Sequence record: MN850644.1
Source: Escherichia phage ekra
Length of the DNA stretch: 64,000 nt
Direction: 5' to 3' (one strand)
Of this stretch, positions 6,993 to 18,976 are shown piece by piece. Position 1 is the stretch's first letter; the number at the start of each line of letters is the position of its first letter. Under the pieces are notes generated by a model. It did not search any database. It saw only the letters and a program-made list of their open reading frames with translations, and was not told where the DNA came from. Made by a program: the position numbers and the translations under genes.

Positions 6993-7205
6993 TTTTGAAT
7001 CTCCAGTTTAGGATTTTATTTAGTGGGGAAGGTCATTCCCTCCCCGTTGATGTAAATATTAGATAACCACGTTCAAAGAGTCAATAAAAATTTTAAAAAT
7101 ATTTTTGGCAAAACTGTAATGAAACGGGTGCGCAAGACTACCACAAAACAGAACGCAAATCAAGAATTATTTTTCAATCCGCTACAAATTTTTCTCTTGA
7201 CTTTT

Positions 7206-7240
7206 GGGGAGAGGGGGAGTAAGAGGGGGAGAGGGGTTGG
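7206..7240 (+). other. Canonical G-quadruplex-forming purine tract (C-rich on the transcribed minus strand)
   Basis: ggggagagggggagtaagagggggagaggggttggg: five G3-5 runs with short loops, in an otherwise AT-rich genome. Confidence 0.5.
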
Positions 7241-7249
7241 GCTGGCTGT

Positions 7250-7450
7250 CTATAAAAACCTACCTGCACAATTCTAAAATGATTTTTCTTGCCCGACCTG
7301 AGCGGGGTCTGCACGTTTTGAAAATGAAAAAGCTCTTTGGAGATTACCTGCACAGTTTGAAAATGAATTTTCTCTTTGGAGTTCAAAATTCTCTCTACAG
7401 ATTTCTCTACAGAACTCTACCTGCACAATTCTAAAATGAAAAAGCCCTCC
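7250..7450. repeat. Four copies of a roughly 20-bp repeat, acctgcaca(a/g)tt(c/t)t(a/g)aaaatga, in the non-coding region upstream of the early cluster
   Basis: Copies read at about 7261, 7301, 7347 and 7420; associated motif ctctttggag twice. Confidence 0.5.
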
Positions 7451-7512
7451 TTACCTGAAAAATTTACCAGATAAGAAAGGCTTAGGCTATTGTGAATATA
7501 CTACAGAGTTTC

Positions 7513-8298
7513 TTAGTTCTTTGCGTCTAAGAAGGTAACTTCTGGTGAAGAGAAGATTGCCTCGATATCCTCATCAGTTCTTGCATAGATATAAGCTTCT
7601 GCATCACTACCAAATGTTACAGCAATTCTGTGATTGCTCTTTGACAGGTGGGTAACTAGAGCGTTACTTAGAGACATCTTTTCAACCGGAGGGTTACTTT
7701 GATGTATCTTACCTTTTCTTCGTCTGAAGAGGGTAACTGCGTTATCTGTGAACACTGCTACACCTGCAAAGTATTCTGGTTCACAGTAGTTCTTCCAACC
7801 TGAGCGTAACTTGTGGTACATCTCGCCTTCATAGACATACAGATAAACATCTACACTCTTCATCACCTGATTGATGATAACTGTGACAGCTTGAGGGTCA
7901 AGTCCACCGATACCTGCACCAATCATAGGTAAACCAACTTTCTTCAACTGATTAACTTCACAGTATCTGTTAAGCTGTTTCAAAGATGACTCTAAAGCAC
8001 TGTATCGGGCATCTTTACCAGTCTTAAGCTGAGTGTAAAGGTTAGCTATACGACCTTGTTTTAAGCGTGCTACAGAGAAATTACCTAGTAAATTCTCACA
8101 GGGTTTGTGACCTATACCACCTGCATAGAGATAAACTTCTGTATCGGTCTCATATGCTTTTGGGTAAAGTTTAGAAATCTTGTCAGCGATACCTGCGCCC
8201 ATTAGGTTCATGCAGTTACAACCATGACCAATGATGTCAAACTTACCTTTATCAAATGCAGCAAAGATATCACCATTGATGATTTTTACAATACCCAT
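7513..8298 (-). CDS. Macrodomain protein, TARG1/DarG-like ADP-ribose-processing fold, with about 110-aa C-terminal extension
   Basis: N-terminal NGDIF...IIGHGCNCMNLMGAGIA matches the HCxS/N...MGxGIA signature of TARG1-type macrodomains; second glycine-rich stretch MIGAGIGGLD. Confidence 0.6.
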   Translation of the reverse strand: MGIVKIINGDIFAAFDKGKFDIIGHGCNCMNLMGAGIADKISKLYPKAYETDTEVYLYAGGIGHKPCENLLGNFSVARLKQGRIANLYTQLKTGKDARYSALESSLKQLNRYCEVNQLKKVGLPMIGAGIGGLDPQAVTVIINQVMKSVDVYLYVYEGEMYHKLRSGWKNYCEPEYFAGVAVFTDNAVTLFRRRKGKIHQSNPPVEKMSLSNALVTHLSKSNHRIAVTFGSDAEAYIYARTDEDIEAIFSSPEVTFLDAKN

Positions 8299-8499
8299 TT
8301 AGCATCTCTCCCAAGATTCTTTATCTTCTGAAGGTTTTACACGTTGCCCCTCATGGTCTACCCAGATGCACCCACAACCTTCACAGATTACTGGCATTGC
8401 ATAACCAGCTTTAAAATCATCTTCAGTGATAAGACCTTTTAAGTCACCTGTATCACGTCCGAACATTTCGATAGAACAGTCTTTACAGAAGTCAGCCAT
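8299..8499 (-). CDS. hypothetical small Cys-rich (zinc-ribbon-like) protein; likely start at internal Met (MADFCKDCS)
   Basis: CKDC ... CEGCGC pairs; ATGgcTGA start/stop overlap with upstream ORF. Confidence 0.4.
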   Translation of the reverse strand: MADFCKDCSIEMFGRDTGDLKGLITEDDFKAGYAMPVICEGCGCIWVDHEGQRVKPSEDKESWERC

Positions 8500-8719
8500 G
8501 AATAATTGCCTCTTGAATGATGATACCTTTACCACAACGACTTTTAAAGTCTTCCAATGGTTCAGAGATGAAGCCACGTAAGCAGTCAGTGAATACTAAG
8601 TTCTTCCTGTAAGCTATCACATCATTTGCTGTAAATGGGATGACCTCATTTCGTCCAATGAATACTGCTGACCTTATAAGTTTTCGTGTCTTTTTATCTC
8701 TGGCTAGTATTACTTTCAT
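8492..8719 (-). CDS. hypothetical protein (75 aa)
   Basis: ORF in operon context. Confidence 0.4.
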   Translation of the reverse strand: MKVILARDKKTRKLIRSAVFIGRNEVIPFTANDVIAYRKNLVFTDCLRGFISEPLEDFKSRCGKGIIIQEAIIHG

Positions 8720-9020
8720 AGTTTACCTTCTCAGTTAGTTCATATAAATCAACATGCTCAATACTGTCAATGTTGATATCAATCTTTTTGAAACGCTCCA
8801 TCACTTCGTTATCAGTCATCCATATCAGACACCAATGATTCTGGATGGATTCTTCAAGAAGGTCAACACAATCTTTAAAGGTTTTTGTATCACTTCTTGT
8901 TCCTACTACTGCGATTGTTCCATATATCCACTTACCATTGCCATAAGATACTTGTGCTACGCCAACTTCTTTACCTTTCTCATAGTAAACGGCTACAAAA
9001 TCTCTTCCATTAATCTGCAT
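8694..9020 (-). CDS. hypothetical protein (108 aa)
   Basis: ORF. Confidence 0.45.
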   Translation of the reverse strand: MQINGRDFVAVYYEKGKEVGVAQVSYGNGKWIYGTIAVVGTRSDTKTFKDCVDLLEESIQNHWCLIWMTDNEVMERFKKIDINIDSIEHVDLYELTEKVNYESNTSQR

Positions 9021-9022
9021 AG

Positions 9023-9292
9023 TTACTTCCTCGTTTTAAGAACTGCTAAGATTTCTTTAGAATCTGGTAAGAACCATGTGTAGTGATTCTCTTTGATTTC
9101 TGGATGAGTGTCAACCTTTATTTTGCACTCTTTACCAACATGTTTAAGCTGTGCTGTGACACCTTGCATAAAGATATGGCACATCACATTATCCATAATG
9201 GTTGGTGAGAAATCAATTCGCATATAAGTCTCTTTTGGTCGTGGTAACAGTAAGTACCCTTCTACGTAAAAAGTATCTTGATTCTCTGTCAT
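9023..9292 (-). CDS. hypothetical protein (89 aa)
   Basis: ORF. Confidence 0.45.
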   Translation of the reverse strand: MTENQDTFYVEGYLLLPRPKETYMRIDFSPTIMDNVMCHIFMQGVTAQLKHVGKECKIKVDTHPEIKENHYTWFLPDSKEILAVLKTRK

Positions 9293-9558
9293 TGCTGCTT
9301 ATTCCCTAATAAAATCATGTCAATAAGGTTGTTAGCTTTGATTGTGCACTGGTAAAAGCCGTCACGATAGAACTCAAGGGCTGCTGCTACATCGCTGCCT
9401 GTGTTGCCTTTGATGATATACCGTGATTCTTCTTGGGTGTACTTATCACCCTCACTTACTTGGGAGTTTTTGAATGTACTGCTCACTTTGTTCGTTGAAC
9501 ACCCTGACATAGTTATCAGTAACACAAACATTATAAAACTCTGGCTTAGTTTTTTCAT
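9289..9558 (-). CDS. putative o-spanin (outer-membrane lipoprotein), start embedded in the i-spanin gene in another frame
   Basis: MKKLSQSFIMFVLLITMSGC: signal peptide plus lipobox-like SGC; overlaps 9452-9799 by about 107 nt. Confidence 0.45.
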   Translation of the reverse strand: MKKLSQSFIMFVLLITMSGCSTNKVSSTFKNSQVSEGDKYTQEESRYIIKGNTGSDVAAALEFYRDGFYQCTIKANNLIDMILLGNKQQ

Positions 9559-9799
9559 ATGTTAGTACCTCTTTTGTATGCTTATTCTTAGCAAGCACAT
9601 CTTTCAAATCATTTTTGTAATTGGTGCTGAGTGTGGCTAAACCTTCCTGATAAGCATCTTTAGCAACACTTATTAGTTTCTCATTATTTAGCTCAGTTTC
9701 AGCAACTTGATAGTCTCTGTAAGAGTATCCTCCCCAGACACCTGCACCAACTAAGAAAACAATTATGAAAGTAGCTTGACAGAACTCTTTAAATGTCAT
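9452..9799 (-). CDS. putative i-spanin (N-terminal TM helix plus periplasmic domain)
   Basis: ATFIIVFLVGAGVWGGY hydrophobic helix near N-terminus; charged helical remainder; overlapping lipoprotein ORF. Confidence 0.45.
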   Translation of the reverse strand: MTFKEFCQATFIIVFLVGAGVWGGYSYRDYQVAETELNNEKLISVAKDAYQEGLATLSTNYKNDLKDVLAKNKHTKEVLTYEKTKPEFYNVCVTDNYVRVFNEQSEQYIQKLPSK

Positions 9800-9820
9800 T
9801 TAACAATCTCCTAAAATGAA

Positions 9821-9842
9821 AAAGGCTCCCGAAGGAGCCTGT
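9821..9842 (-). terminator. Intrinsic terminator hairpin (aggctcc cgaa ggagcct) with T-run on minus strand
   Basis: Read directly; downstream of 9852-10316. Confidence 0.55.
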
Positions 9843-9851
9843 ATCTTAACC

Positions 9852-10316
9852 TTAACCGAGGACTTTAGCAAGGATATTCGCAGCCATCGAAGAAGCTTTT
9901 GCAGCAGCAACTACGCCAGCTTTGACAGTGCTATCCTTAATAGCAGATACCGTTGCAGCATCAGTAAAGAGATAAGTGATTGTTTTAGAACCACTTGTAA
10001 AGGAAAGCATAAGAGTAGTTTCCAGATTGAAAGAGCGATACGGAGCACCTTCTTTAACGATACCTTCAGCACCTAACTCTGAAGCCTTACCCATATCATA
10101 GATAGTCATCAGGTTTTCTTTGTGTGCAGTCGTTGAACCAGCACCTTTTACGTGTTTTTTAACATTCAATAATGCACGATATTCACGAATGCTGCCATCA
10201 GCTTTTACATTAACAGCACGAAAAATTTTACCTTCAAAGTTACCTTGAATCATTTTACGAACTATTGCAGATTTGTTTACCGTATCGTCCAGTGCTACCG
10301 TAATGATATTGTTCAT
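9852..10316 (-). CDS. hypothetical protein (154 aa)
   Basis: ORF followed by terminator. Confidence 0.5.
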   Translation of the reverse strand: MNNIITVALDDTVNKSAIVRKMIQGNFEGKIFRAVNVKADGSIREYRALLNVKKHVKGAGSTTAHKENLMTIYDMGKASELGAEGIVKEGAPYRSFNLETTLMLSFTSGSKTITYLFTDAATVSAIKDSTVKAGVVAAAKASSMAANILAKVLG

Positions 10317-10326
10317 AAGTTTTCTC

Positions 10327-11022
10327 TCAATGTTTAACTAACATGGTTTTAATGTGTGGAAGGATTCTGTTCACCTTCTGCACATTCTTCTCTGTGTCTT
10401 CTATAAAACATACTATATTAAAGTAAGGCAGGATGCAAGACTGAATCATCCTCACTTTCAAACTTTCTGCACTTATAGAGTTAGTTCCAAAACCACGCAT
10501 AAAAAGCATGTAGTCATGCTCTATGTTGTGCCTTAAAAACATCTCAGTAGGTATTCTCTGAGATTCACCTCTCGCTGTCAAGAGTCCAATGGCAGCATGA
10601 TTAGCAATTGCATCAATAATACTAAAGACATACGTTGGTTTTGCTCTTACAGAGTCAAGAAGATTAGTGTACTGTGAGAATGACCCATCAGTCAATTCCG
10701 TTGAGCAATCTTCGTGATTAAAATTTGTAAGAACACCATCAATATCTGCTAAGATGAGGTTACCTTTTTCTACAAGGTCTTTATTGACTATGACTAAGCT
10801 ATCACGACTTACACCTATAGTTTGTCCAGTCTCTTTATCTACAACATTCACAATTGGCTCTGATGTGTGGAACTCTTCGAGTGAACATACAACTTCTCTT
10901 GCAGTGTCTTCAAAATCCCTACACTGTTCTGGAGTCCATACACAGGAATCAAGACCTAACTCATGAGGATGTAAGTCGTAAGCATGACACAGTACTTCAT
11001 CAGACTTTTTTAATTTTTTCAT
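10327..11022 (-). CDS. HAD-superfamily-like hydrolase/phosphatase candidate
   Basis: Motif ILADIDGVL resembles HAD motif I (DxDGT/V); otherwise unassigned. Confidence 0.35.
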   Translation of the reverse strand: MKKLKKSDEVLCHAYDLHPHELGLDSCVWTPEQCRDFEDTAREVVCSLEEFHTSEPIVNVVDKETGQTIGVSRDSLVIVNKDLVEKGNLILADIDGVLTNFNHEDCSTELTDGSFSQYTNLLDSVRAKPTYVFSIIDAIANHAAIGLLTARGESQRIPTEMFLRHNIEHDYMLFMRGFGTNSISAESLKVRMIQSCILPYFNIVCFIEDTEKNVQKVNRILPHIKTMLVKH

Positions 11023-11548
11023 GGTTTACCTTAGAAATGTTTGTTGCAAATTCACATTGAGCAATGACTTTCATGTTGTTATAGACATCTTGAGAATATT
11101 TCTTAGCTTTAGGGATTTTGTACGAATACCCAGCATTATATGATGCTAAAACTTTTTGTAAAGTCTTCTTTGACTTTGGCTGACCATGCACCTTTGTCCA
11201 AAACTCAAGCTCTTTGTGAGTTTCCTTCGCAGCATAGTTAAAGTCTTTTAAGAGTTTCTTTTTAGCCACATTAGGACTAATTTTGTTACGCTTTACAACA
11301 GTCTTCAAGTGATTCTGGAAAATACCATAATCATGTGTCTTTTTATTCTCTACCTTCAGACCTAACTCTGACTCTTGTAAGGCTATAGCAGCTAGAGTGA
11401 TACCCCAACCTTTACCCATGTTGTTCTCACCATACTGGTAAGCTTTTAACATGTTTACTTTTTGGCTAATTGATAGCTCTGGGCAGTCAACTGCATAAGA
11501 TAAGTGTGCTGTAAACATTAAGCACAAACCTAGAATCAATTTCTTCAT
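11000..11548 (-). CDS. Lytic transglycosylase (SLT domain) with N-terminal signal peptide; endolysin candidate
   Basis: MKKLILGLCLMFTAHLSYA signal; SLT motifs AIALQESELG (catalytic Glu-Ser), GIFQ, SYNAGYSY. Confidence 0.65.
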   Translation of the reverse strand: MKKLILGLCLMFTAHLSYAVDCPELSISQKVNMLKAYQYGENNMGKGWGITLAAIALQESELGLKVENKKTHDYGIFQNHLKTVVKRNKISPNVAKKKLLKDFNYAAKETHKELEFWTKVHGQPKSKKTLQKVLASYNAGYSYKIPKAKKYSQDVYNNMKVIAQCEFATNISKVNHEKIKKV

Positions 11549-11612
11549 TGGTTCTCCTGTTTAGTTTATCGTGACAACAATTATACAGTACTCTGCACAA
11601 AATACAAATAAA

Positions 11613-11638
11613 AAAGGCCGCCGAAGCAGCCTTTTAAG
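11613..11638 (-). terminator. Intrinsic terminator hairpin with T-run on minus strand
   Basis: ggccgccgaagcagcc stem-loop flanked by aaaaaa (plus) = tttttt on minus. Confidence 0.5.
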
Positions 11639-11648
11639 AAATTACTTA

Positions 11649-12758
11649 TTAGATTTCACGTTTACGCTGAGAGATGAGTTCCCCAGCAGTGCCAACGATG
11701 ACATGCAAAGCTTCAGTCTTGCCATCCCATGCTTTCAGTACTTTACGTTGATTATCAACGATTGCTGCAACTTCATAACGTGATGAACGCATCTTCATAT
11801 CGTTGTAATCAGTTGGTACGGACACAACATCTCGTGGATGGACACGAACCTTCAGAATTGTATCACCTGAGAAGCAACGAACATAATCCCAAGCACCAAC
11901 ATGAAGACCTTGAGAGCAAGTCATGTTACGGTTATTATCAACCATCCAACGTGGCATTTCTACAATGTTACCCAAATCATTAGGTACTCTGTAGGTGTGG
12001 TAGTCAACCAGCTTGCCTTCACGAGTAGATACTTTCTTCCAACCAATGATGTAGCCTTCTTCATCAATTTCAACATCAAGGTGAGATACGAAGCCCCAAA
12101 GTTGTTCTACGGAATCTTTAGATGGGTTTTCCATCAGTTTTTCGAAGAACATCACAAGGCGTTCGAAACCTTTATCTCCAGTCTTCATCATGTGAAGAAT
12201 ACGGTCAACCAGAGTAGAACGCATCTCAACAGCACCGTAGAATAACTTGTCACCTTTGATGGTGATAGCACCCTGAGTGAAGTTTTCGATAGACTTACGA
12301 ATGTTCATCAGTTCGAAAGCTTTCTTATACTCACCGGATACAACAGCCATCACGATTTCTTTATAGTTCGGATGGGTAGATTCAACGATTTCAGAATCTG
12401 CACCGAAAGTCATGATAACAGAGTCACCAGTAATCATATACTCAATCTGGTTGCCATTCTGCATAGCTTCATGCAGTTTATTTACTGGAGCTTTCTGTAC
12501 AGCGTCTTTAACAACTTTTTCAACTGGCTTGTCAGCTTTCTTTTTAAAAGTCTTAGCAACTTGTTTCAAAGTCTTCGTAGCTGGTGTAGAAGTCGCCTTC
12601 TTATTCCCTTTTAAGGTTGCTTCATGACGCTCTACAGCACGACCGACTGAACGGGTTGAAGTATTAAATTTCTGTGCAATAGCTGTTTTAGTCAGCTTAC
12701 CTTCTTTAACCAGTTTGTAAATTTCTGCGTCAATCTGTGCTTTAGTTTTAGTAGTCAT
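11649..12758 (-). CDS. rIIB-like protein candidate (369 aa) with N-terminal HTH-like segment
   Basis: Positional partner immediately downstream of the rIIA-like gene; similar size class; N-terminus TAIAQKFNTSTRSVGRAV looks helix-turn-helix; no diagnostic motif. Confidence 0.35.
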   Translation of the reverse strand: MTTKTKAQIDAEIYKLVKEGKLTKTAIAQKFNTSTRSVGRAVERHEATLKGNKKATSTPATKTLKQVAKTFKKKADKPVEKVVKDAVQKAPVNKLHEAMQNGNQIEYMITGDSVIMTFGADSEIVESTHPNYKEIVMAVVSGEYKKAFELMNIRKSIENFTQGAITIKGDKLFYGAVEMRSTLVDRILHMMKTGDKGFERLVMFFEKLMENPSKDSVEQLWGFVSHLDVEIDEEGYIIGWKKVSTREGKLVDYHTYRVPNDLGNIVEMPRWMVDNNRNMTCSQGLHVGAWDYVRCFSGDTILKVRVHPRDVVSVPTDYNDMKMRSSRYEVAAIVDNQRKVLKAWDGKTEALHVIVGTAGELISQRKREI

Positions 12759-12839
12759 CTTATTACTCTCTCTCTTGTTAGTTAATAAATCATTTTGTGA
12801 TGCTATTTTAAGGGGTTTTGAAGCCCCTTGTCAAACACT

Positions 12840-15206
12840 TTAATCGTAAATTGTAGTTCCTTCTGGAACACATTTTACATCAAAACCTAAGAACTTACTC
12901 ACTTCGATGGGTGACACTTTATTCCAATCTAAATGAGAAAGCAAGAAGTTTTCTTGTTTTCTTTTTGAAAGATAGTTTGTCACCTTAATAACCATACGGT
13001 CACCAGCTTTCTTAATTTTCTTGTAAAGCTTTGTATCGTTGTCAAGACAGTCTTTCAAAGTTTTCAATACACTAATAGTATAAGTGTATGCAAATGGTGC
13101 AGCAACGTATTGGATTTTACCGAACATTGCCTCTACAGCCTCTTCATTACCTTCTAGGAAGATAGTTTTGTTTGTATCCCGTGAATAGCAATAACCACGA
13201 GAAATCTTCCTATTATTGAATGTAAAGTTTCTGGCAATAATCCAGCTACTTGTAAGGTCAAGAACACCATTCATGTAGATGCGTGTCATATACCTGTTGT
13301 GATTAATCCAATGAACATCAGTTAAGCTGTCGTTCAAGAGCTTCTCATCTACTTCAATCCAGTCTTCTGGTATCTTTTTCCAATTTGCTTTTCGGAAAAC
13401 ATAGACTGTCTTTCCAATAACATTAGTAACTGACTTAGCTACATCTTCTGGGGATGAGCAAAAACATTCACCATCAACTGTGTCACCAATTGCCTTAATG
13501 TAAAGCTGAGGTTCTTCAATTGTGTCTAAGTCCTCTGACACCTCTTTGTAGGAGGCTACACCTTCTGCTGGAACAGCTTTCCAGAGTTTTACAACACCTC
13601 TTACAGCTTCTTTACGCTGGTAATGGTGTTCCTTATCAGACATTTTCACAATCTTTAACAAGCTTTTATCAAGTTTGTGTAGATTGATTAAATCATCTAA
13701 CTCTTTTTCAGTCGAGAATACAAACACAATACCATTATATCTGTGAAACAGACTGGACTCACTGGCGTAGTCTCGACATGCACCACGCAGAATCTGATTG
13801 CGGCCTACAGTCTTCTCAGTACCGTTTTTATTGCGACGGTCATTAATAACAAACAAAAACTGTTCAATTTGACTTTTACGCATTGCACCAAAGATATTGA
13901 ACATACTTGCCTCTTGAGTGTAGGAAAGTGCTGTTGCACGAATCTTACTCTCTAAAGAGTTGAACTTGACATAAGCAACTGGATTGTATAGGTAGTCAAC
14001 TTTAGGGATATTGTTTCCTTTGCTGTCAACCTTAATATTGCCTTTGCCGTCACGTTCATAGACGACTGAGCCGTCTTCTGCGTAGATAATTCCACGACGA
14101 ATGTTTAACAATTCTTCTTCCAGAGAGTCAAGCTTAACACCTCCCCACTCTAACTTTGGACACACAGCATTAAACATCTCTCGTGAGTTCAAACGTAACT
14201 CAGCATAAGCCTGTGCAGCATCCATGAGTGTAGGTTGACTGTTAACTTTCTTGATAACATCCTTTGTAATTGCTTCAGTTATCTTTTTAGTAGCCTCAAT
14301 GATAACATTTTTTGTCGTGTCATTCATCTGCAATGCTTCACGAGAAGCTGCAATAGCGACTGAACCAATAGGCATGTAGATGTTTACAAGGTCTACGCTC
14401 CTACGGAAAAATTCTGGCAAGACTTTGAAGAAATCATCGCCAAGTAATGCTTCCATATTAACTGGGTAGGCAATATTACCCATTACCACATTAAAATCTG
14501 TCCTGTTGCCACTAGAACGCCAGCTTTGCTTATGAATCATAGCATCATAAACACCTTCTTCACGGGCAATGACGTTCATATCTGCTAACACGTCATCATA
14601 CACAATGTTACTTTCTGGTTTTACAGCAAAGTATGAGTATACGTGACCAGCCTCTTCAAAGAACTTTGAGATGCGGTGGTCAGCAACTGCCACACGTACA
14701 GCTAAACCATTAGGTTCTTTTGTTGGGTTAGTTGTCAGCTTAGTTACTTGAGGGATACCATTCTCAAGGTAAACAGAGTACTTATTAACAACACCATCAA
14801 CATAGCTAGATACTGTGAATGACTGAGCAATTGCAAATGGTGACTTTGAGCCGATACCCATTGCACCAATGTAGTCATTGGAGTCATTCTTTGTAGAAGC
14901 CCCGTAGTTTAGGTACAAGCTCATAACTTTGTCATGAGTTAATCCAGTTCCAAAATCACGAACTTCAAAGTAAGGCTCAAAACGAGTAGGTAAATGCACA
15001 TGGAATGGGATGTTCTCTTTTCCAGCTTCTTTCTGAGCATCTACTGCGTTACATGACAGTTCACGAATAACTGCCCTTTCTTTAAATGTGTATACACCAG
15101 AACTCAAAAGGCTGAACATTTCAGGTGTCATTGTAATCTGTGCTTGAGACGTCTCTAAAGAAGTTGAACTCTTAATCACTTCTGCGTGGTCGTTTACCAT
15201 GCGCAT
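12840..15206 (-). CDS. rIIA: rIIA-like protein with N-terminal GHKL/HATPase-type ATPase fold
   Basis: N-box-like ELSCNAVDA and G1-box-like DFGTGLT near N-terminus; 788 aa; adjacent putative rIIB. Confidence 0.5.
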   Translation of the reverse strand: MRMVNDHAEVIKSSTSLETSQAQITMTPEMFSLLSSGVYTFKERAVIRELSCNAVDAQKEAGKENIPFHVHLPTRFEPYFEVRDFGTGLTHDKVMSLYLNYGASTKNDSNDYIGAMGIGSKSPFAIAQSFTVSSYVDGVVNKYSVYLENGIPQVTKLTTNPTKEPNGLAVRVAVADHRISKFFEEAGHVYSYFAVKPESNIVYDDVLADMNVIAREEGVYDAMIHKQSWRSSGNRTDFNVVMGNIAYPVNMEALLGDDFFKVLPEFFRRSVDLVNIYMPIGSVAIAASREALQMNDTTKNVIIEATKKITEAITKDVIKKVNSQPTLMDAAQAYAELRLNSREMFNAVCPKLEWGGVKLDSLEEELLNIRRGIIYAEDGSVVYERDGKGNIKVDSKGNNIPKVDYLYNPVAYVKFNSLESKIRATALSYTQEASMFNIFGAMRKSQIEQFLFVINDRRNKNGTEKTVGRNQILRGACRDYASESSLFHRYNGIVFVFSTEKELDDLINLHKLDKSLLKIVKMSDKEHHYQRKEAVRGVVKLWKAVPAEGVASYKEVSEDLDTIEEPQLYIKAIGDTVDGECFCSSPEDVAKSVTNVIGKTVYVFRKANWKKIPEDWIEVDEKLLNDSLTDVHWINHNRYMTRIYMNGVLDLTSSWIIARNFTFNNRKISRGYCYSRDTNKTIFLEGNEEAVEAMFGKIQYVAAPFAYTYTISVLKTLKDCLDNDTKLYKKIKKAGDRMVIKVTNYLSKRKQENFLLSHLDWNKVSPIEVSKFLGFDVKCVPEGTTIYD

Positions 15207-15392
15207 AATACTTTCCTCTCAGTTTACTGTTAAATTACTTATTAAACATTTTACCAGAACCACCACACATAGGGCAACATCCTGCCCTTATGTACCCCTC
15301 TCCATTACAGTAGTCACATTTTTTGTGCTCTGCAAAGTACTTGCAAAGGAGGTAGACAAATACTGCTACACTACCAAGTGACAGTAAAATTT

Positions 15393-15728
15393 CTATCCAA
15401 TATGCTTGCATGACTCACCTCTCATATTCTTGTAAAGGATAAAGCTTCTGTCATGGACGATACTTGTAGACACTGCAAAGTTACTTTCAAGCATCTGTTT
15501 GTTTGGATTGTAGAAGCTTCCTTTAAACTCGTCAAGTGCAAATTGGTGATTATCTGGAAGACCTTTTACACAGACCTTTATTGTAATTGCTGCTGCGACC
15601 TTGCCAGTCAGTTCTTCTTTAGCTGCTACTAAAATTTTGTTAAGAAACTTATGGCCATCTTCAGGCTTCTTGATGTTCTCCCAACGTTCTTCTAAGACAA
15701 TGTTGATGTTCATCTCTTTGATTTTCAT
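15393..15728 (-). CDS. hypothetical protein (111 aa)
   Basis: ORF. Confidence 0.5.
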   Translation of the reverse strand: MKIKEMNINIVLEERWENIKKPEDGHKFLNKILVAAKEELTGKVAAAITIKVCVKGLPDNHQFALDEFKGSFYNPNKQMLESNFAVSTSIVHDRSFILYKNMRGESCKHIG

Positions 15729-15750
15729 AGTTTTCTCCAGAAATTAAAAA

Positions 15751-15770
15751 GGCTCCCGTAGGAGCCTCTT
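15751..15770 (-). terminator. Intrinsic terminator hairpin (ggctcc cgta ggagcc) with T-run on minus strand
   Basis: Read directly; downstream of the NAMPT-like gene. Confidence 0.55.
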
Positions 15771-15781
15771 ATCATATACTT

Positions 15782-17467
15782 TTAAAGCTGCTTGTCAATA
15801 TTATTTCGAATATCACCAAGAGTTGTGTAACCAAACTGCTCAGAGTCACTAAAGACTAAACGTAAAGCACAAGCTGGGTGGTCAAGTACATCTGCAAAAC
15901 TCTGGAATCCATAGCCATCTACAGCTTTCAGCTTACCACCATCCCACATAGGTGCTACACCACCAAAGGCAGATTTCTTAACACCACTATCTGTTTTAGG
16001 GTCTTTTGCAAGCATAATCTCTTTACCACCAATGCTTGCAAGAGTTGCTTTGACAGCAAATGCAAAGGTGTCACGAGTCATGTACTGGTAAGTGTAAGAA
16101 CCTACGCCAAACACTACGTTAGAGCTTGCAAAACCCATTTCATACAGACGCTTCAGGATTTCGTTTGCACGTTCCAGCGTGATAGAGTCACCATAGATAA
16201 GTCCGATATGCTCATCCAGTACCTTAAACCCTTTAGAGTTAATAGTTCCCCCAAAGATGTTGTACAGTGTCTTAATAGCTCCATCAATCTCAGCTACAGG
16301 ACGTGTTACAACGTTTGCAGAACCAACCATATAAGCATTTTTCAACATCACTGTATCAGCAACTTCAAAGTCTTCTCTGTCAACAACCATTTCGTAGCCT
16401 TCTGACAGTAGCCATCCAGCAATACCATAGTTGATATTTTCAAGCTTCATGTTCAGAACAGCATTCAACATTGTGTCACTGGCTTCCAGCTTGCTTAGGT
16501 GCTCGTAATAAGCCTTTTTAGCACATTCTAAGTGGATTGCTTTATAACCTGTGACAATATGTACAGGGTCTCCAGAGTCAGGACGAATTACCAGTTTGCC
16601 ATCACGTTCCATAATTTCTTTACGAAGTGCTGGTAAAATTTCTGACACAGTTCTCCAGAAGTTATAAGTGTCTGAAACAACACTTGCAATACCAGTTGGG
16701 TAAGTTTCTGTTAAGAAACGACGGAAGGTTTGTAACTCACCTTTAAAGCGTCTTTCTTCTTCAATCAACTCATTACCACCTTCCCAAGCAATGTTTGCAC
16801 ACATTACAGAGTGCTCAGTGGCTGGTACAGAACCACCAATATCAGAGATTGGGTAAGACTGCCCGTAGATGCGTTTAGCTGTATATACAGCAGGGAAGCT
16901 ATCAGTTCCTTTAAAGCTGGTTAAGTGGCCTACAGCATTAAATGCGTCATCAGTAAAGCCGGACATACCACGCATAGCAAAGTCATGGCACTGATAAGGC
17001 AAATGTAAGTCGTTGTCACAAGTAAGGTCAGCCCACTTCTTACAGATACGTTTGTAGTGTAATGCAATAGTTGCAATGGTACAAGCCTTCCAAATCTCAG
17101 CAGAAAAAGCATCTTCCAGATACCCCGCTACCCAATGGAAACCTGAAACAGTGTTCTGGAAGACAATCATTGGCACACGCATAGGGACAACTGTGCCTTC
17201 TTCTACAGCGTATACTTCAACTGGCAGATAACCCAAGTCGTGAAGTGCTTCCCAATGCTCTCGACCGATAGCATCTTTACCCAGAACACCATTCATGACT
17301 TCTAAGATTTCGTCAATTGCTTCTTTTTTATCACGTTCAAAGAAGGTGGCATTCCAATGGTCTATCAAGTAATCTTTAACAAAACGTTGAATACCAAAAG
17401 CCACTACACCGTCAATTGCCAAAGGGCTGTTAAACCATTTGTCGCTACGTGGTGTCAGGTTCAACAT
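15782..17467 (-). CDS. Nicotinamide phosphoribosyltransferase (NAMPT/NadV) family protein; may be a nicotinamide ADP-ribose transferase of a phage NAD+ reconstitution pathway
   Basis: Matches recalled NAMPT motifs: IRPDSGDP, GDS...GVGSY, KDPKTDSGVKKSAFGG; 561 aa. Confidence 0.8.
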   Translation of the reverse strand: MLNLTPRSDKWFNSPLAIDGVVAFGIQRFVKDYLIDHWNATFFERDKKEAIDEILEVMNGVLGKDAIGREHWEALHDLGYLPVEVYAVEEGTVVPMRVPMIVFQNTVSGFHWVAGYLEDAFSAEIWKACTIATIALHYKRICKKWADLTCDNDLHLPYQCHDFAMRGMSGFTDDAFNAVGHLTSFKGTDSFPAVYTAKRIYGQSYPISDIGGSVPATEHSVMCANIAWEGGNELIEEERRFKGELQTFRRFLTETYPTGIASVVSDTYNFWRTVSEILPALRKEIMERDGKLVIRPDSGDPVHIVTGYKAIHLECAKKAYYEHLSKLEASDTMLNAVLNMKLENINYGIAGWLLSEGYEMVVDREDFEVADTVMLKNAYMVGSANVVTRPVAEIDGAIKTLYNIFGGTINSKGFKVLDEHIGLIYGDSITLERANEILKRLYEMGFASSNVVFGVGSYTYQYMTRDTFAFAVKATLASIGGKEIMLAKDPKTDSGVKKSAFGGVAPMWDGGKLKAVDGYGFQSFADVLDHPACALRLVFSDSEQFGYTTLGDIRNNIDKQL

Positions 17468-17579
17468 AAGATATTGCGTAGCATCTGGATACTGATATAT
17501 ATATGTGATGCCTTGTAAGCATCTGCATTAAGACCTGCTGGTACTGCGTAAAGTGACTTACTCATATTTTATCTCTCTC

Positions 17580-18071
17580 TTAGTTATGTCTTGCAAACTC
17601 ACCATGAAGTTCTATTCGCTTTTTAATTACAGCTTCTTTTGCTTCTTCTACCGTTTTAAATCTTCCACAAAAGTATTCTTTATGGTAAAGCATGACTCTT
17701 GCTTTGTAAAGACCTGTTTGTTTACAAAAACTTACACCCTTCACACCAGTTTTATTATTCTTGTATATACCTCTATTCCTCTGATTTTGTGACTTTGTGC
17801 TAAGTCTTAAATTCTCCAACTTATTATTAGATTTATCAAGGTCTATGTGGTCTATCTCATATCCACTTGGTATCTCACCTCCAGACATAATCCATGCAAT
17901 ATTATGTGCATAGTACCTCTTCTTATTTATCTGGACTTGGATATAACCCTTCTTAGACCTTGTGCCAGCCACATTACCAGCAATAGCGGTACTGCAAAGG
18001 GTTACTCTCCAAATTAATAAACCTGTATCTGGTTCATATATTAGGTATCTTTCAAAATAACCCTTATTCAT
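17580..18071 (-). CDS. Free-standing HNH homing endonuclease with AP2-type DNA-binding domain
   Basis: YAHNIAWIM...EIDHIDLDKSNNKLENLRL (HNH) and NKTGVKGVSF...YKARV (AP2); paralogous to 30369-30869 and 40472-40984. Confidence 0.75.
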   Translation of the reverse strand: MNKGYFERYLIYEPDTGLLIWRVTLCSTAIAGNVAGTRSKKGYIQVQINKKRYYAHNIAWIMSGGEIPSGYEIDHIDLDKSNNKLENLRLSTKSQNQRNRGIYKNNKTGVKGVSFCKQTGLYKARVMLYHKEYFCGRFKTVEEAKEAVIKKRIELHGEFARHN

Positions 18072-18079
18072 ACTGTTAC

Positions 18080-18976
18080 CTAATCAATGTTTGCTACAGT
18101 AACTTGACCATAATGTGTTAAGCCACGGTCTTTAGCTTCTCCTAAAGAGTTTGTAGTGTAGATATGGTCAATACCATTGCCAAGTAAGTTTTCAACCCCT
18201 TTAGAGAAAATGCCATGAGTTACATAGAGTTCCACACGTTTTGCACCTGCTTCACGTAGGTGTTTAGCTGCCTCTACGAAGGTTCGACCACCATCACAGA
18301 TATCATCAAGAATCATGACAGTTTTATCGGTCAAATCAACATCGTCAAGGATTCGCATACCAGTGATTTCTCCAGTCTTAAGATTGCGCACCTTAGACAT
18401 TGTGATATATGGTTTATCCACCTCTTTAGCGGCATCTTCAGTCTTCTTAGCTGCACCTGCATCTGGGGCTACCAAGAAATCAATGCGTGGGTCACTTGCA
18501 AAGTGTACTGCCACATCTTTTTGCTTCATGCTCTGAAAACACTTAAATAAGTTTTCTGCAACATTACTGTGAGGGTCAAGAGCACATACTGCATCAAAAC
18601 CCATTGCATTAACGAGGTTGGCAAAAACTTTCAGTGCTGCTGCATCACCTTTGAACATATGGCGGTCATATCGAGCATTTGGTAAGAACCCGAAAACAAC
18701 GGTTTTCATCGCTGATTTATAGGGAACAAGACTATCAACGGCATCCTTAGCCAAAGCTAATGCAAACAGTGTATCTTTGTCATATCCCTGTACAGTAATT
18801 ATAACATTATCAATCTTACCAGCATTACGCTCAGTAAACTTAACAAAATCTTCAGAGAAGTTTCCACCAATTTCTCCAGATGGGAATTGAATGATATTAA
18901 ATTTTTCTGTGTGGAAGAATTTCTCTTGTGCGGTGACGACGGCTTCAATAACAGTTTTCATAGTTTTCTCTCTCAA
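18080..18976 (-). CDS. Ribose-phosphate pyrophosphokinase (PRPP synthetase, Prs)-like protein; may be an ADP-ribose pyrophosphokinase
   Basis: PRPP-binding-type motif MILDDICDGGRT (DDIxDxGxT); 298 aa; beside NAMPT-like gene. Confidence 0.75.
   Translation of the reverse strand: MREKTMKTVIEAVVTAQEKFFHTEKFNIIQFPSGEIGGNFSEDFVKFTERNAGKIDNVIITVQGYDKDTLFALALAKDAVDSLVPYKSAMKTVVFGFLPNARYDRHMFKGDAAALKVFANLVNAMGFDAVCALDPHSNVAENLFKCFQSMKQKDVAVHFASDPRIDFLVAPDAGAAKKTEDAAKEVDKPYITMSKVRNLKTGEITGMRILDDVDLTDKTVMILDDICDGGRTFVEAAKHLREAGAKRVELYVTHGIFSKGVENLLGNGIDHIYTTNSLGEAKDRGLTHYGQVTVANID

Follow-up and report, generated by a model that had tools for sequence, protein, structure and literature searches.

A Gln-type macrodomain protein with an orphan C-terminal domain in Escherichia phage ekra, a candidate counter-defence hydrolase of ADP-ribose adducts

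Phage macrodomain proteins of one branch have just been reported to serve two different purposes in different phages, protection against DarTG2 and removal of phosphate from ADP-ribose-1''-phosphate (ADPR-1''P), which feeds the NAD+ reconstitution pathway NARP1 against the defence protein aRES. Here we describe a protein that belongs to the same branch and is encoded by Escherichia phage ekra (sequence record MN850644.1), a Felixounavirus (Felix-O1-like phage), at positions 7513-8298 of a 64,000-nucleotide stretch that we refer to as the window. Among its described relatives, SCO6735 of Streptomyces coelicolor, which has a His/Asn/Gln (H/N/Q) active site without the catalytic Lys and Asp, outperforms DarG and TARG1 in stripping DarT-made thymidine-linked ADP-ribose from DNA. 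It can rescue cells from DarT and also removes mono-ADP-ribose from protein; its Q85A and Q85E variants are inactive. In phage T4, tk.4 was the single HIDEN-SEQ transposon hit under DarTG2, and a clean tk.4 knockout is DarTG2-sensitive; the product was named AdfM (preprint, doi 10.1101/2025.11.20.689424). The same name has been given to PhiKZ gp104, a different, Lys-containing and DarG2-like macro protein whose Asn23 mutant (N23A construct) has reduced activity. The RES-domain defence aRES converts NAD+ to nicotinamide and ADPR-1''P, which NARP1, discovered and defined in phage Bas63, cannot use (doi 10.64898/2026.01.28.702374). In about 15% of NARP1 phages, the gene of a Poa1p-like Macro protein named Adpp lies no more than two genes away from the NARP1 components Adps or Namat, and purified Adpp of Vibrio phage Gary converts ADPR-1''P to ADP-ribose (ADPR), with H24A abolishing the anti-aRES function (doi 10.64898/2026.01.28.702374). 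Felix-like phages were absent among those assayed in the HIDEN-SEQ and aRES preprints.

The ekra gene is read from the minus strand, from an ATG at 8298 to a stop codon at 7513-7515, and its translation is a two-domain protein of 261 amino acids; a reading of the plus strand is ruled out, as the interval is packed with stop codons in that direction. The product is 97% identical to that of Bas63 bas63_0095 (gp95, 'putative phosphatase'), its orthologue, and matches phrog_335 ('phosphatase', E=4.6e-113), and public records label the gene 'putative phosphatase' or 'macro domain protein'. The open reading frame (ORF) put forward in an earlier reading of this DNA (hereafter the original prediction) is thus a real gene. 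We assign residues 1-165 (7804-8298, minus strand) with confidence to the ALC1/TARG1-like class of macrodomains. The protein scores above the gathering cut-off of Pfam PF01661 (Macro), its AlphaFold2 model has a predicted local distance difference test score (pLDDT) of 86.8 and a predicted template modelling score (pTM) of 0.85, and its top PDB matches by both sequence and fold are BT1257, SCO6735, TARG1, DarG and Poa1p, with ALC1 (CHD1L) matched as well. These matches bear out the TARG1/DarG (ALC1-like) class that had been proposed. Within this class, the protein belongs to a Gln-type branch, as do SCO6735, Bacteroides BT1257, T4 Tk.4 (AdfM) and the Adpp phosphatases of phages. Among solved structures, the sub-family profile matches BT1257 (2AFC/2FG1) and SCO6735 (5E3B) best, with E of about 1e-21 to 1e-22.

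Hidden Markov model (HMM) alignments place Gln90 (codon 8029-8031, minus strand) at the position of TARG1 Lys84, DarG Lys80 and SCO6735 Gln85, and Gly131 at that of TARG1 Asp125. His25 (codon 8224-8226, minus strand) corresponds to His24 of both Gary Adpp and SCO6735 and is invariant in both family alignments, and the canonical macrodomain Asn, Asn28 (codon 8215-8217, minus strand), corresponds to Asn23 of PhiKZ AdfM and Asn27 of SCO6735. The His24/Asn27/Gln85 set that characterises SCO6735-type sites, including BT1257, is therefore present as His25/Asn28/Gln90, and these three residues never vary among 17 family members (32-71% identity), nor in the wider sub-family; by comparison, Lys92, two residues past Gln90, is unconserved in the family. 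T4 Tk.4 shares the H/N/Q signature in our alignment, and the Adpps in Table S1 of the aRES preprint carry the same motifs. The original prediction had taken the motif NGDIF (residues 8-12), followed by IIGHGCNCMNLMGAGIA at residues 22-38, as the signature of the TARG1-type macrodomains, that of DarG included. As a catalytic signature this was overstated, since the alignment it had proposed for the catalytic Lys and Asp finds neither of them (K84 replaced by Q90, D125 by G131). Its further premise, that such a loss would refute a hydrolase role, is invalid as well: SCO6735, which has neither Lys nor Asp, cleaves thymidine-ADP-ribose in DNA, so that a Gln-type site has full activity on DNA modified by DarT, and a missing lysine does not amount to inactivity.

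Comparison with the Lys-containing members of the class led us to reject membership in each of them. The curated DarG model NF048014 gives the ekra protein 48.1 bits (cut-off 250) in an alignment limited to the macro part (residues 7-164), which is similar to what it gives T4-type Tk.4 (30 bits) and Adpp (35 bits); PhiKZ AdfM, which is truly DarG2-like, reaches 138 bits. Besides this score, the replacement of the catalytic Lys80 by Gln90 and the lack of a DarG-type C-terminal domain speak against DarG. DarG binds DarT through its C-terminal domain and is encoded next to darT, whereas the C-terminus of the ekra protein is left unaligned by DarG models and has no fold match, and no darT adjoins the gene, the neighbouring ORFs being small and without Pfam matches. 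TARG1 (OARD1) is set apart by its Lys84/Asp125 dyad, and the PhiKZ gp104 type (DarG2-like AdfM) by 24% identity (E=3e-4) and by the lysine of its 'PTK' motif, which is a Gln in the ekra protein. Differences also exist within the Gln-type branch: SCO6735 and BT1257 are bacterial proteins with a long mobile loop and no C-terminal domain, and SCO6735 is encoded in a DNA-damage-inducible (RecA-NDp-type) regulon.

Taken together, our analysis indicates that the gene product is probably a Gln-type macrodomain with hydrolase activity that serves the phage in counter-defence. That DarT2-modified DNA is its principal target is a more tentative proposal, to which we give slightly less than an even chance; it is nevertheless the reading that we favour and rank first, followed by a role as an Adpp encoded at a distance from NARP1. 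In the proposed mechanism, the ADP-ribose moiety would be seated in the macrodomain cleft, where Gln90, Asn28 and His25 would hold the distal ribose and a water molecule in place for hydrolysis of the bond at C1'' of that ribose. A lysine nucleophile would take no part, and the product set free would be ADP-ribose. The principal substrate would be thymidine-linked ADP-ribose set on replicating phage DNA by DarT2-type toxins, so that the protein would act as an orphan antitoxin, as its short-loop relative T4 Tk.4 may do. ADPR-1''P from RES-type NAD+ phosphorylases (aRES) would be a second, non-exclusive substrate, and, because the C1'' chemistry is identical in both roles, it is quite possible that one protein has both activities. 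Either way, the product ADPR would be a substrate of the phage's own NARP1 (Adps and Namat). The C-terminal domain would serve in targeting or protein binding, not in catalysis. The roles that had been proposed for the gene thus find precedents in homologues of the same branch (Tk.4 against DarTG2, SCO6735 on DNA, Adpp for NARP1).

Pairwise comparison identified T4-type Tk.4 as the best match among characterised relatives (82 bits, 34% identity, E=3e-24), followed by JG004-type Adpp (75 bits, E=8e-22), Gary Adpp (53 bits, E=2e-13) and PhiKZ AdfM (26 bits). The spacing between the active-site Gln and a conserved Tyr is 9 residues in the ekra protein, in all members of its family and in Tk.4; no NARP1-linked Adpp has fewer than 11 or more than 16 residues there. 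IMG/VR loci were de-duplicated and NARP1 was scored within 10 kb of the macro gene: both NARP1 genes were found at none of the 37 short-loop loci and at 5 of the 23 long-loop loci (Fisher p=0.006). The use of this post-Gln loop as a criterion for Adpp is an observation of our own and is unpublished. We favour a role against DarT2 over an Adpp role because the short loop is common to the ekra protein and Tk.4 and is unseen in NARP1-linked Adpps. Homology and loop length together support a putative placement in the T4-type AdfM group. Like the ekra gene, tk.4 is a stand-alone early phage gene without an adjacent toxin. Tk.4 differs in being a single domain of 155 amino acids, to which the ekra protein adds an orphan domain of about 95, and T4, unlike ekra, has no NARP1.

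Several observations weigh against this reading. Identity to Tk.4 is just 34%, and the evidence on T4 tk.4 consists of genetics alone, reported in a preprint (doi 10.1101/2025.11.20.689424). A bootstrapped neighbour-joining tree, in which the Ounavirinae clade was recovered at 78% and NARP1-linked Adpps were paraphyletic, leaves the relation of the Ounavirinae clade to the Tk.4 and Adpp clades open (bootstrap <45%). The loop character amounts to one indel, and the DNA-active SCO6735 has a long loop. Lys34, a DNA contact of SCO6735, is Ala35 in the ekra protein, Pro stands in for the conserved Trp of GGxW, and an Erwinia (Kolesnikvirus) orthologue carries Gln at the position of His25. In addition, every relative down to 33% identity has kept NARP1 and the macro gene together in one early block of co-directional genes, which fits an Adpp. 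No published experiment exists on any Ounavirinae orthologue; PhageMaP was applied to Bas63 without mention of g95, and we found no phenotype for the Bas63 orthologue in PhageMaP, the HIDEN-SEQ and aRES preprints, the AdfN paper or two survey preprints. Net charge and isoelectric point, considered as a proxy for DNA binding, proved uninformative, since Tk.4 and PhiKZ AdfM are acidic too. The Erwinia orthologue, from phage vEam_W_25 (L009 8998-9780), has 260 amino acids and reads AIGQGCNC in the region of His25, the equivalent of which is essential in Gary Adpp; its C-terminal extension is kept and cannot be aligned by BLAST.

The alternative that comes closest is that the protein is an ADPR-1''P phosphatase of an extended NARP1 (NARP1-AP), a third gene located 7.5 kb from Adps and Namat, a reading that is possible and that we hold with some doubt. 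According to this explanation, phosphorolysis of NAD+ by aRES or other RES enzymes yields nicotinamide and ADPR-1''P, and removal of the phosphate lets Adps and Namat rebuild NAD+. Both NARP1 genes are orthologues of those of Bas63: Adps (ADP-ribose diphosphokinase; 18080-18976, minus strand; PF00156/PF14572, phrog_619) is 97.7% identical to gp79, and Namat (nicotinamide ADPR-transferase; 15782-17467, minus strand; PF04095, phrog_448) is 98.6% identical to gp80, so that the phage has a NARP1 97-99% identical to an experimentally proven one. The 'Prs-like' enzyme at 18080-18976, for which the original prediction had presumed free ADP-ribose as substrate, is thus Adps, whose substrate is indeed ADPR, and a functional link between its locus and the macro gene is plausible. 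The ekra protein has the Poa1p-like Macro domain with the catalytic His of an Adpp and shares its H/N/Q sub-family with Gary Adpp (gp137), which is proven biochemically, whose phage likewise encodes NARP1 and whose His24, dead as H24A, is His25 in ekra. In the tree, the entire sub-family falls between NARP1-linked Adpps, so that the activity may be ancestral. Furthermore, aRES is present in E. coli, Klebsiella and Enterobacter, and an IMG/VR lineage (L072/L074) also has a macro gene about 6.4 kb from Adps and Namat. The published survey was limited to two genes around NARP1 and lists no Escherichia or Salmonella phage in its Table S1; it would have overlooked the macro gene because its search stopped there. 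These points are countered by the loop, given that all Table S1 representatives are long-loop proteins, and by position: the ekra gene lies 14 genes (7.5 kb) from Namat, beyond the two-gene range of the Adpps, with a terminator-like site (9823-9840) in between, and is not operonic with NARP1. Identity to Adpps is 27-30%, and these are single-domain proteins of about 155 amino acids with a long, aromatic post-Gln loop. Most members of the family, which are from T4-like phages, come without NARP1, and a phosphatase acting on a metabolite has no need of a fast-evolving additional domain or of allele replacement. Throughout the relatives mentioned above, one strand carries Adps, Namat, rIIA, rIIB, ..., HAD/PNKP-like gene, ..., Macro in this order; such synteny favours a link with NARP1, yet it reflects shared ancestry within one phage lineage and is not independent evidence.

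Action on another ADP-ribose adduct or signal is unlikely in our estimate. The candidates include ADP-ribosylated protein (host or phage), RNA modified by CmdTAC-like or DarT-like systems, O-acetyl-ADPR from sirtuin-type defence and the ADPR-derived signals of Thoeris. Macrodomains are promiscuous, as the activity of SCO6735 on protein illustrates, Aravind's survey predicts that phage macros mostly act on soluble ADP-ribose derivatives, and RyDEP shows that phages degrade cyclic ADPR (cADPR) signals to ADPR, feeding NARP1. However, no homologue of the sub-branch has been shown to act on such substrates in a phage context, the cADPR isomers of Thoeris are ribose-ribose glycosides that a different enzyme family deals with, and no phage ADP-ribosyltransferase partner was seen beside the macro gene. 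It is very improbable that the protein is a non-catalytic ADP-ribose sponge or sensor with the C-terminal domain as effector. Some macrodomains merely bind ADPR, and the lost Trp of GGxW and the Erwinia orthologue without His25 would fit such a role, but the His, Asn and Gln on which SCO6735 and Adpp depend are kept without exception by 17 diverse members of the family, and the macro domain shows a very low ratio of nonsynonymous to synonymous substitution rates (dN/dS, 0.02-0.03). Least probable of all, and highly so, is the classical role of yeast Poa1p (6LFQ), clearance of the ADPR-1''P by-product of Tpt1/KptA-dependent RNA (tRNA) repair during infection. The protein is Poa1p-like, its GenBank label is 'phosphatase', a HAD/PNKP-like phosphatase gene (10327-11022) is conserved nearby, and PhageMaP noted a 'slight' Tpt1-like structural similarity of Bas63 gp107. 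Yet Poa1p is a eukaryotic housekeeping enzyme of tRNA splicing, and the Tpt1/KptA pathway was undetected in the phage: annotations in the 30-kb block inspected include no RNA ligase, 2H phosphoesterase or KptA, and the supposed 'polynucleotide kinase' at 10327-11022 is a HAD-only protein without a Pfam match. Bas63 gp107 (L008 28154-28696) was rejected as a Tpt1/KptA-like source of ADPR-1''P, as it has no Pfam or PDB sequence support. Homologues of gp107 occur in Felix-like, Erwinia, Pakpunavirus and Vibrio phages, a distribution that overlaps the lineages carrying NARP1.

The C-terminal domain (about residues 170-261; 7516-7791, minus strand) consists of six beta-strands and one helix and is predicted to fold confidently both in the full-length model and on its own. 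Searches of 1.84e9 representatives and of 5.8e9 proteins revealed no sequence relatives outside its family, and its fold relatives in BFVD were confined to its own family. The dN/dS ratio of the C-terminal domain is 0.06-0.16, versus 0.02-0.03 for the macro domain, indicating that both are under purifying selection; only three positions of the C-terminal domain are conserved across the family.

The body of the macro gene is an allele-replacement hotspot in a backbone that is 95-97% identical, an arms-race signature. L004, a Felix-like contig from a metagenome, matches ekra at 95% DNA identity in window 8713-17579 and at 96.9% in 7073-7327, and there is no detectable nucleotide similarity from about 8156 to 7460 (L004 10143-10838), across the gene body and its terminator. 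The L004 allele (P0009, from a cluster of 96 member sequences) has 42% amino-acid identity to the ekra protein and keeps H/N/Q. This hotspot suggests strong, ongoing selection. We infer that it would fit a module in contact with a variable host protein; for a metabolite phosphatase, such replacement has no obvious use. It is a speculative and rather unlikely extension of this idea that the domain grips a variable defence protein (the DarT2 toxin or an aRES/RES enzyme), in the manner of the DarG C-terminal domain or aRad1. If so, the protein would be a two-in-one counter-defence factor that erases the product of a toxin enzymatically and neutralises the toxin stoichiometrically, and allele replacement between near-identical Felix-like genomes would switch the toxin variants that are recognised.

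The annotation of the gene as a macrodomain gene is already known, and both candidate functions have been published for homologues. What is new is the two-domain architecture with its orphan domain, the non-operonic coexistence with NARP1 in the very lineage in which NARP1 was discovered, and the allele-replacement hotspot. Felix O1, Bas63 and other felixounaviruses serve as workhorse phages of Salmonella and E. coli, both for therapy and as models. In this setting, gp95 bears on whether one Gln-type macrodomain serves both purposes reported for its branch, on a possible 'split' NARP1-AP in Felix-like phages that the published operon-based survey would have overlooked, and on what the unique C-terminal domain contributes. 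The allele-replacement hotspot would be useful for predicting host range from phage genomes.

Upstream of the macro gene lies a small ORF (8299-8577, minus strand; phrog_2210) whose TAA abuts the macro ATG, an arrangement that suggests translational coupling. Downstream, a consensus scan identified a strong terminator-like hairpin of 17 pairs followed by a T-run (7442-7483, minus strand), 30 nt past the macro stop codon, which is the probable end of the macro transcription unit. In the intergenic region on the same side of the gene (window 7249-7454), a direct repeat of 25-34 nt occurs at least four times, with the core ACCTGCACARTTYKAAAATGA on the plus strand and a spacing of 39-84 nt; the copies may be phage promoters or regulatory elements of the small minus-strand ORFs that follow. 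Another terminator-like element of about 34 nt, a GC-rich hairpin with a T-run (AGGCTCCTTCGGGAGCCT), is present in two early-region copies, at window 9807-9840 and 15734-15767, which cross-match in blastn against L004.

Further variation was observed among the neighbouring genes. An HNH_3/AP2 homing-endonuclease ORF (17580-18071, minus strand) is located between Adps and Namat, which are separated by just about 45 nt in Bas63, Shigella phage Tf and L004. Adps itself is mosaic, being 97.7% identical to its counterpart in Bas63 and 77-84% to those in Tf and L004; for Namat, identity is about 99% throughout. The gene at 10327-11022 (minus strand, phrog_3970), called 'polynucleotide kinase' in relatives, keeps its synteny with the macro gene and NARP1 in every relative examined and encodes the HAD motif DxDGxxT (as ADIDGVLT) and no P-loop; by its motifs, the product looks like a HAD-type phosphatase only. 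A second kind of macro protein is encoded by Escherichia phage EmilieFrey (Bas61; L010 753-2968), where the gene had seemed to lie next to Adps; we rejected this assignment, as the neighbour is a ComF-like phosphoribosyltransferase (PF15610). The Bas61 protein, bas61_0068, has an N-terminal extension of about 90 amino acids and is part of a three-gene block with the ComF-like phosphoribosyltransferase and a HAD hydrolase, a macro module separate from NARP1.

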